A DNA stretch of 36,104 nt from a virus. The DNA is taken from the IMG/VR virus record IMGVR_UViG_3300045988_159500, positions 1-36,104 of that record; one strand, written 5' to 3'. The position numbers and the translations under genes were made by a program. Each line of letters begins with the position of its first letter. Positions within the stretch are counted from its first letter, which is position 1. The notes beneath the pieces were generated by a model that did not search any database, had not been told where the DNA came from, and saw only the letters and a program-made list of their open reading frames with translations. This document shows, one piece after another, positions 32,356-32,915 of this stretch.

Positions 32356-32382
32356 AAAATAAATTAAATAGGAGGAAAAAAT

Positions 32383-32541
32383 ATGATAACAAACGTAAGT
32401 TCATTACTTACTTACTTACTTACTTACTTACTTACTTACTTACAGGGAAGGAGGTGCAGTTATTTAATAATTGTACCTCTTATGAGAAAGGGGGCAAGGC
32501 ATAAAAATATTACTTGCTCTCTAAGAGGTGCATGTCTATGA
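32383..32541 (+). CDS. 52-codon leader ORF containing the (TTAC)10 tract, stop overlapping the tail-fibre start (ATGA)
   Basis: GGAGG lies 7 nt upstream of the ATG at 32383. The frame reads MITNVSS (LLTY)x3 L QGRR... and ends with TGA at 32539-32541, overlapping the ATG at 32538 of the downstream fibre gene. Confidence 0.35.
   Translation: MITNVSSLLTYLLTYLLTYLQGRRCSYLIIVPLMRKGARHKNITCSLRGACL
32404..32443 (+). repeat. Perfect tetranucleotide repeat (TTAC)x10
   Basis: Read directly from the sequence. 40 nt, not a multiple of 3. Confidence 0.95.
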
Positions 32542-32915
32542 GTTTGAAAAATTACCCAGATATGACAACACCACTAAATGCAGAAAACTTAAAATTACAA
32601 CCAAAAACAGCAAAAACAATAAGTGATAACGATGTTTATAGTTGTAATTATATAAATGCTAATACAATTCCAATGATAAACTTTAGTGGAGATTTTAACG
32701 ATTATAAAGAAACCGCTATAGGTCAATGTCAAATGTCTGCTAATAAGCCACCAACGGATGCAAATTATTTTTATGGAACAGTAATAGCGATAAAGTTTGG
32801 AAGTGCTTATTGCAGTCAACTTGCAACCGATATTAACACTGGAAAAATGTATAATAGAGTATTAATAAATGGCAGTTGGACAGCATGGAAAGAAGTTCAG
32901 CTAAATGCTTTATAA
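32538..32915 (+). CDS. Tail fibre / receptor-binding protein paralog 1
   Basis: Conserved N-terminus NYPDMTTPLNAENLKLQ is shared with the two downstream paralogs. AAGAGG RBS 9 nt upstream of the ATG at 32538. Divergent C-terminus. Confidence 0.55.
   Translation: MSLKNYPDMTTPLNAENLKLQPKTAKTISDNDVYSCNYINANTIPMINFSGDFNDYKETAIGQCQMSANKPPTDANYFYGTVIAIKFGSAYCSQLATDINTGKMYNRVLINGSWTAWKEVQLNAL

Follow-up and report, generated by a model that had tools for sequence, protein, structure and literature searches.

What could a long and perfectly repeated tetranucleotide tract be doing directly ahead of the tail-fibre genes of a temperate phage? This question is raised by the IMG/VR record IMGVR_UViG_3300045988_159500, whose 36,104 nucleotides (nt) were analysed as a whole (hereafter the window). 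Ten TTAC units lie there inside a short leader open reading frame (ORF), between the gene of an 831-amino-acid (aa) tail protein and fibre1, the first of three putative fibre genes. The answer that we favour, with slightly more confidence than doubt, is that the tract is a slipped-strand contingency locus that is read through a translational attenuator formed by the leader ORF and that sets the expression of fibre1, and possibly that of fibre2 and fibre3 too. The elements on which this reading depends are given below, n being the number of repeat units; the leader region that holds them covers the 182 nt between the 831-aa gene and fibre1.

32370-32375, + strand: Shine-Dalgarno sequence (SD) of the leader, AGGAGG, 7 nt before the leader ATG.
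32383-32541, + strand: leader ORF, 52 codons in this allele, with a length and a C-terminal tail that vary with repeat number.
32404-32443, + strand: (TTAC)x10 tract (Tandem Repeats Finder, TRF: period 4, 10.0 copies, 100% matches).
32465-32467, + strand: leader stop (TAA) used for n=0 mod 3, within the loop of the predicted hairpin 1 and with a second in-frame TAA after it.
32502-32504, + strand: leader stop (TAA) used for n=2 mod 3, at the apex of the predicted hairpin 2 and 36 nt upstream of the fibre ATG.
32538-32915, + strand: fibre1, 125 aa, receptor-binding-protein-like, with weak PHROG tail-fibre and minor-tail matches (2e-4).

Reading frames and length variation of the tract

Flanked by AACGTAAGTTCA and AGGGAAGGAGG, the tract is the sole TRF array of such a score with 100% matches in the window, and a 16-nt piece of it was found in 0 of 100 dinucleotide-preserving shuffles. 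It is devoid of stop codons in all three frames of the + strand, and TAA is present in every frame of the - strand. The leader encodes the peptide MITNVSS(LLTY)n followed by one of three alternative tails, and in this allele its TGA (32539-32541) overlaps the ATG at 32538 of the 125-aa ORF in an ATGA junction (32538-32541). When the window was rebuilt with 4 to 16 units, the leader ended at the TGA at 32539 for n=1 mod 3, at the TAA at 32502 for n=2 mod 3 and at the TAA at 32465 for n=0 mod 3, the product being only 22 to 34 aa long in this last case. The leader stops of real alleles match these three simulated positions, and gene finders call the leader in relatives at 37, 45, 52, 56 or 68 aa. 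A change of one unit shifts the leader frame and leads to a different stop, as is expected of a contingency locus. The first-pass annotation, made by a model from the letters of this DNA, had already described a perfect 40-nt (TTAC)10 tract in a 52-codon ORF, a strong ribosome-binding site (RBS) 7 nt before the ATG at 32383, and a leader TGA overlapping the fibre ATG; it had also deduced by hand that the gain of one unit would move the stop to 32502 and its loss to 32465. The TRF array and the ORF call, the AGGAGG at 32370-32375, the overlap seen in the sequence and the rebuilt windows agree with it on each of these points.

The status of TGA matters here because the host of the phage is labelled 'Mollicutes', and genetic code 4, in which TGA encodes Trp, was considered for that reason; it was ruled out by the usage of TGA and TGG. 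TGA is a true stop: 10 of the 50 ORFs terminate with it, Trp is specified by TGG (99 codons), and the window has six further ATGA junctions between genes. A scan of 32356-32537 returned no promoter-like or terminator-like site on the + strand, which argues against readings of the tract as a promoter spacer or as part of an intrinsic terminator. A search of Rfam at E<=1 over 31800-33100 gave no match. Nothing suggestive of a stalling motif was seen in the leader, the proposed trigger being instead the frame-dependent position of its stop.

Relatives of the locus were gathered as about 60 contigs from human-gut metagenomes, on the basis of exact matches of the flanking proteins and close variants and of pattern scans of the flanking DNA. 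Loci that retain fibre1 are referred to as family 1 and those from which it is deleted (L077-L081 and L098-L101) as family 2. The tract was found at the orthologous site of every related contig that reaches this site. The 42 complete alleles have 4, 5, 6, 7, 8, 9, 10, 13 or 14 units, the last unit being ATAC in some of them, and incomplete contigs have at least 15. Flanks that are otherwise the same carry different numbers: L063 and L065 have 0 mismatches over 2350+2972 nt, yet 6 vs 14 units; L071 and the pair L073/L074 have 0 mismatches over ~2.4 kb, yet 7 vs 14 units; and L071 differs from L067 by a single mismatch, with 7 vs 6 units. The tract is hypermutable across natural isolates. Repeat-number polymorphism in related prophages, which the first-pass annotation had proposed to look for, is strongly apparent, with 4 to at least 15 units on otherwise identical flanks. 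The same annotation had envisaged that relatives might lack the tract or carry it at a constant length and that the leader ORF might be unconserved; instead, the tract varies and the start of the leader (RBS and ATG) is conserved in all family-1 and family-2 loci, with a different, weaker start in the diverged locus L116.

A fibre1-based search of species-representative genomes found no related locus, the metagenome pattern scan added one locus only, and scans of IMG/VR with fibre2 and the C-terminus of the 831-aa protein gave no contigs beyond those already found. The IMG/VR metagenome 3300045988 alone contains four variants of the cassette (L012, L013, L087 and L088), with 5, 6, 8 and at least 15 units. 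A second, smaller length polymorphism is seen just upstream of the leader start, where the A-run between SD and ATG (32376-32382) is A6 or A7 among relatives, which changes the SD-to-ATG spacing; at 32360-32369, 'attaaat' is 'attaaaat' or 'attaaaac' in some relatives.

It is hardly credible that the differences in length are artefacts produced when a repeat is sequenced or assembled. Such artefacts might be suspected from the Logan contigs (k=31), which always break at the tract from 8 units up (L007, L008, L076, L096 and L097), from the six alleles with exactly 14 units (56 nt, i.e. k+1 for the common k=55, so that 14 possibly stands for 'at least 14'), and from the N-runs that follow 14 units in two scaffolds. 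However, the reads and k-mers used exceed tracts of 16 to 52 nt in length, the same sample in two collections gives the same count (L064 and L090, both 13), a likely same-sample pair agrees as well (L073 and L074, both 14), and seven units recur across unrelated samples and different assemblers. For tracts of up to 13 units, an assembly artefact is excluded. At least seven contigs or scaffolds other than those of Logan (L003, L066, L075, L088, L091, L095 and L100) have an end or an N-gap in the tract, and such breaks are only suggestive of switching in a clonal population. Many Logan contigs with the 831-aa protein are ~8366-8370 nt long, as would be expected if all of them were cut at the tract on one side.

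In family 1, the loci with n=1, n=2 and n=0 mod 3 number 16, 14 and 4, or 13, 13 and 4 once same-contig and same-sample duplicates are removed. The rarest frame (n=0 mod 3) is that with the earliest stop, i.e. the predicted OFF state. The tracts of family 2 have 4, 7, 8, 9 or 10 units, and alleles with 4 units are three of the eight in this family vs one of the 34 in family 1.

Predicted alternative helices ahead of fibre1

The sequence between the tract and fibre1 is predicted to contain the following RNA elements.

32449-32463, + strand: R1, 5' arm of hairpin 1, an SD mimic (AGGAGGUGCA) that is a near copy of the fibre SD region (AAGAGGUGCA).
32467-32481, + strand: R2, 3' arm of hairpin 1, with an anti-SD core (UGUACCUCUU, 32472-32481) able to pair with R1 or with R3.
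32449-32481, + strand: hairpin 1, formed by R1:R2.
32489-32522, + strand: hairpin 2, with a 10-bp stem identical in all family-1 and family-2 loci and a core kept in L116.
32523-32532, + strand: R3, the ribosome-binding region of fibre1 (AAGAGGUGCA), with the SD GAGGUG at 32525-32530.

The 94 nt that separate the tract from the fibre ATG have one and the same sequence in 31 loci, and differences per 100 nt amount to 0.34 in this stretch, 4.43 in fibre1 and 1.95 in the 400 nt at the 3' end of the tail gene. For the free RNA, the minimum-energy fold consists of the two hairpins (-37 kcal/mol, z=-4.1) and leaves the fibre SD open, with an unpaired probability of 0.61. When R1 is blocked in ViennaRNA, R2:R3 forms as a 10-bp helix that encloses the intact hairpin 2, and the unpaired probability of the SD goes from 0.61 to 0.00. 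The R2xR3 duplex has an energy of -18.9 kcal/mol vs -4.6+-2.1 kcal/mol in shuffles. According to these computations, R1:R2 and R2:R3 would be mutually exclusive, and the latter would pair the downstream SD. A hand-drawn alternative helix of ACCUCUUAUGAGA with UCUCUAAGAGGU, which breaks hairpin 2, was replaced by the ViennaRNA solution around an intact hairpin 2; the G to A single nucleotide polymorphism (SNP) at 32484 is paired in the hand-drawn helix and unpaired in the R2:R3 solution.

Natural variants bear on both predicted folds. The SNP at 32484, found in family 1, is unpaired in each of them, and a T to C change at 32474 in L087, another family-1 locus, turns a G.U into a G-C pair in both helices. 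In family 2, the changes concentrate in R2 (ACCUCUU to AUCUUUU) and in R3 (AAGAGGUG to AAAGAUAU); R1 and hairpin 2 are unaltered. The two alternative folds are predicted again for family 2 and for L116. The latter locus (L116/L117, 5296-5520) follows a tail protein that is 57% identical, encodes an unrelated leader peptide with (TACA)x4 and precedes a truncated homologue of fibre1; R1:R2, hairpin 2 and the pairing of R2 with the SD are nevertheless predicted again, and the leader ends once more at the apexes of hairpin 1 and hairpin 2. The ATGA overlap for n=1 mod 3 is found in family 1 only, neither family 2 nor L116 having it. Judging from L116/L117, where the layout of SD mimic, anti-SD, hairpin 2 and SD is the same despite the divergence, the leader switch is older than the long TTAC tract.

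In the alignment A4, 97.6% of the cells of hairpin 1 are paired, one pair being changed on both sides and four on one side, and all changed cells but three preserve the pairing. For R2:R3, 94.3% of the cells are paired and three pairs are changed on both sides (C-G to U-A twice, and U.G / U-A / C-G); this covariation score is reached by one of 500 shuffles, and slid controls pair 42 to 66% of their cells. The modelling and the alignment together show two alternative predicted helices that are conserved and covary.

Other roles can be considered for these helices. The switch might act on the RNA, the leader stop deciding whether the composite hairpin (R2:R3 with hairpin 2) forms as an attenuator or terminator, or as an element of processing or stability, for the downstream transcript of the fibre and lysis genes. 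We regard this as improbable, even though the combination of leader ORF and alternative helices recalls trp-type attenuators and family 2 retains R2:R3 complementarity in a sequence where R3 is no longer an SD: neither helix is followed by a U-tract, the terminator scan of the leader region was empty, termination at this place would also block the expression of holin and lysin, and R3 coincides exactly with the SD in family 1 and L116. A role of the small peptide itself, the repeat varying the length and the tail of a small phage protein, is less probable still. The strong RBS, the hydrophobic repeat and the fact that gene finders call the ORF would be in keeping with a functional peptide, but no family match was found for it, its tails derive from sequence constrained as RNA helices, the product of the n=0 mod 3 frame is very short, and L116 has an entirely different leader peptide ahead of the same predicted switch.

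The tract could also be a neutral or mildly deleterious microsatellite, with fibre1 starting from its own SD and with a polymorphism that is noise on an RNA element having another role. This appears unlikely to us, although several of the data given above are in line with it: fibre1 has a strong SD that the minimum-energy fold leaves open, each of the three frames is common among natural loci, family 2 retains a variable tract despite the deletion of fibre1, and the diverged L116 has a leader and the predicted switch with only (TACA)x4. Nevertheless, perfect tetranucleotide tracts of 40 to 60 nt are not expected by chance, and this one is the sole such tract in 36 kb; it lies inside a translated ORF whose consensus RBS is conserved in family-1 and family-2 loci; each of its frames stops at a structurally special point of the predicted folds (hairpin-1 loop, hairpin-2 apex or ATGA); and the frame predicted to be OFF is under-represented.

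The putative fibre genes and their phage

Fibre1 is followed by two other small genes of the same kind, and the cassette is embedded in the late region of the genome as listed here.

32949-33476, + strand: fibre2, 175 aa, GTG start, no SD, N-terminal anchor motif, no PHROG match.
33508-33909, + strand: fibre3, 133 aa, no SD, N-terminal anchor motif, match to PHROG 2712 'tail fiber protein' (E=5e-12).
84-1196, - strand: integrase gene, first in the gene order and followed by the head genes.
27741-29432: tape-measure gene, followed by the gene of a 138-aa protein and then by that of the 831-aa tail protein.
29860-32355, + strand: gene of the 831-aa distal tail protein (Tal-like), located after the tape-measure and 138-aa genes and upstream of the leader.
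Downstream of the three small fibre genes: holin-like genes and an M23-type lysin gene.

The first-pass annotation had viewed the three fibre genes as paralogous. This applies to a ~22-residue N-terminal motif, NYPD/N..TPLNAENL..Q, which is all that the three proteins have in common, and not to their C-terminal domains, which are unrelated in sequence; a common motif with unrelated C-termini is the pattern of putative alternative receptor-binding heads on one anchor. These genes lie between the tape-measure and Tal-like genes on one side and holin and lysin on the other, a location that fits tail fibres, and the head domain of fibre1 is present in another phage beside genes encoding collagen, Phage_fiber_rpt and Peptidase_S74 domains. 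A search of PDB sequences with fibre1 returned no informative match, and its AlphaFold2 model, based on 18 close homologues, was unusable (predicted local distance difference test, pLDDT, of 43.6). Homologues of 165-181 aa had suggested leader-fibre fusion proteins; these were ruled out, the N-termini of those homologues being unrelated.

Strict coupling would leave fibre1 without an accessible RBS of its own. Fibre1 has an SD of its own, a GAGGTG 7 nt upstream of the ATG that the minimum-energy fold leaves open, and loss of the ATGA overlap need not silence the gene for this reason. The earlier proposal that a gain or loss of one unit uncouples the leader from the fibre start is right in that the stops move, but fibre1 need not be turned OFF by this. 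Similarly, the ATGA overlap through which a single fibre was thought to be toggled does exist, but the predicted RNA switch is the likelier read-out and the whole cassette may be concerned. Fibre2 and fibre3 start 33 and 31 nt after the preceding stops and may depend on upstream translation; as both are devoid of an SD, the switch may act on the entire cassette. Family 2 is a two-fibre variant in which fibre1 is reduced to a remnant of five codons, ATGAGTTTGATATTTTAA (MSLIF*); it keeps the leader, the tract and both predicted helices and has lost the SD (region orthologous to 32538-32948 of the window).

The window (1-36104) is the complete genome of a temperate siphovirus-like phage with a G+C content of ~27%. 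Both circular and integrated forms of the phage were assembled: circular contigs (L002, L005, L006 and L008) run from 36104 to 1, and the integrated form (L001, L004 and L007) adjoins a Peptidase_S11 gene that is 100% identical to a gene of the human-gut metagenome-assembled genome 'uncultured Mollicutes bacterium UMGS1266' (URRF01000031.1). As host of the phage we take this uncultured bacterium of the human gut, deposited under the name 'Mollicutes bacterium UMGS1266'. A sharp mosaic boundary lies at 30932, inside the 831-aa gene, where homology to L004, L012, L013 and L014 begins. The cassette, i.e. the part of the 831-aa protein from 30932 on, the leader and the fibre genes, is 94-99% identical across phages and follows differing tail proteins (735, 766, 831, 864 and 938 aa, the 938-aa one with a Prophage_tail domain). 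A blastn search of 31800-33000 against 50,697 GenBank phage records gave no match, and a search of PDB sequences with the 831-aa tail protein was uninformative.

Two other repeats were noticed in the window. A 29-nt tandem duplication at 33896-33956 (2.1 copies, 90% matches) extends from the end of fibre3 into the start of a 91-aa holin-like gene, and a 42-nt repeat at 23979-24095 (2.8 copies, 68% matches) is in frame within a 79-aa ORF (23904-24143) that sits directly after a gene of major-capsid size.

Proposed functioning and comparison with known systems

The proposed functioning of the locus would be as follows. The tract would slip at replication, as suggested by the pattern of polymorphism and as established for such repeats in bacteria. 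The gain or loss of units would leave the fibre protein unchanged and would move the stop of the ribosomes that translate the leader. In the resting RNA, R1 would hold R2 in hairpin 1, leaving the SD of fibre1 (R3) free, and a ribosome on R1 would free R2, which would then form the 10-bp helix with R3 and so enclose hairpin 2. With n=0 mod 3, the ribosomes would cover R1 only and would stop in the loop of hairpin 1, short of R3, so that the SD would be sequestered and fibre1 expression would be low or OFF. When n=2 mod 3, they would traverse R2, open hairpin 2 and stop 36 nt before the ATG, with an intermediate expression of fibre1. When n=1 mod 3, they would melt all the structure and stop on the ATGA, re-initiation adding to de novo initiation, and fibre1 expression would be highest. 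This setting may propagate to fibre2 and fibre3, which have no SD. The outcome would be a heritable, reversible and stochastic variation of the receptor-binding-protein make-up.

The regulatory read-out is plausible on the basis of the folding models. We infer a repeat-dependent effect on fibre expression, as well as which frame would give which expression level, the size of the effect and its consequence for host range. More tentatively, and with clearly more doubt than confidence, the tetranucleotide repeat may be regarded as a heritable three-position dial (high, intermediate or off) that acts on the receptor-binding-protein cassette by means of the leader frame and the SD switch and that serves host-range bet-hedging; it would then be the first contingency locus read by a translational attenuator.

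Several data weigh against an attenuator that sets fibre expression. The SD of fibre1 is strong and, in the minimum-energy fold, unpaired, and de novo initiation may make any effect, or its dynamic range, small. The modelling of ribosome footprints is heuristic. Covariation comes from three lineages only, which makes it supportive, not conclusive. Family 2, without fibre1 and with an R3 that is no longer an SD, keeps a varying tract and R2:R3 complementarity; the R2:R3 helix may thus have a role other than the masking of the SD, or an additional one, such as RNA stability or attenuation. The deficit of the n=0 mod 3 frame is weak (~p=0.07, the samples being non-independent), and each of the three frames is the dominant allele in some natural samples. 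As 14 units are possibly an assembler ceiling (k=55), the frame calls of these alleles are unsafe. The variation in length that was seen is variation between contigs. Lastly, the identification of the genes as fibres or receptor-binding proteins is based on their position and on weak-to-moderate PHROG matches, the AlphaFold model being unusable.

Simple-repeat phase variation is textbook knowledge in bacteria; in phages it is a recent finding that concerns only short homopolymers inside genes of lytic phages. In full-text literature searches, no description turned up of a phage fibre gene preceded by a leader ORF with a long tetranucleotide tract, or of a contingency locus whose read-out is an SD / anti-SD switch. 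If the attenuator reading is true, a temperate gut phage is able to maintain a long and highly unstable tetranucleotide tract, and a repeat controls a gene without touching its coding sequence, by means of a leader stop that is moved inside an RNA switch. This would be a new route to diversify the composition of receptor-binding proteins, with a mechanism other than that of invertible segments, of diversity-generating retroelements or of homopolymers inside genes. The design is compact (~180 nt) and easily tested in reporters. In addition, the tract offers a natural marker: the distribution of its lengths among metagenomic reads could be used to follow the population dynamics of phages in the human gut.

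Among bacterial systems, the tetranucleotide contingency loci of Haemophilus influenzae, such as lic1A with its (CAAT)n tract and three expression levels, offer the first term of comparison. As in lic1A, a long perfect tetranucleotide tract is located at the 5' end of a translated region, and three frames lead to three translational outcomes, predicted ones in the present case. Unlike in lic1A, the tract belongs here to a separate leader ORF, and the read-out would involve the position of the stop, an RNA switch and re-initiation; furthermore, the element is carried by a phage, the host of which is an uncultured gut Firmicute-like bacterium. General reviews of contingency loci are available (PMC4235727 and PMC11868660).

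In phages, hypermutable polyG tracts in the receptor-binding-protein genes of the Campylobacter Fletchervirus phages are reported, according to the mention in PMC10877375, by Sorensen et al. 2021 (Cell Rep 35:109214), and homopolymers of at least 6 nt act as contingency loci in T2/T4 and other lytic phages (Gomez et al., bioRxiv 10.1101/2025.10.21.683753). According to a survey (bioRxiv 10.1101/2025.10.21.683753), homopolymer repeats are depleted in tail fibres. The present tract resembles these systems in being a phage-encoded simple repeat that would generate heritable and reversible population diversity, which in the Campylobacter phages concerns host-recognition proteins. Whereas the Campylobacter and T2/T4 phages are lytic and have short homopolymers within coding sequences, whose variation truncates the protein, a tetranucleotide tract of 16 to at least 60 nt is found here in the leader of a temperate phage, and the fibre protein remains intact.

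The proposed read-out is closest in kind to the leader-peptide translational attenuation of ermC and cat and to the coupling of coat and replicase in MS2. All combine a translated leader with mutually exclusive helices, the position of the ribosome deciding whether the downstream SD is paired. As in the erm and cat systems, a short upstream ORF with its own RBS is present here (AGGAGG, 7 nt, ATG), and L116 has a leader ORF as well. Unlike in ermC, cat and MS2, the input would be a genetically switchable stop position and not drug-induced stalling or ongoing upstream translation. In addition, the polarity is apparently reversed, as a ribosome on R1 would hide the SD instead of exposing it.

Dedicated switches of phage host range comprise the invertible G/C segments of Mu and P1 and the diversity-generating retroelements exemplified by Bordetella phage BPP-1. 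The present locus resembles them in that variation would be programmed, at high frequency, in a tail-fibre module and in that alternative fibre genes are gathered in one cassette. Literature on such switches includes PMC9881135 and PMC3521204. Unlike those of Mu, P1 and BPP-1, the present system involves no invertase, inverted repeats or reverse transcriptase, and it is the level of expression that would vary, and not the order of the genes or the sequence of the protein.

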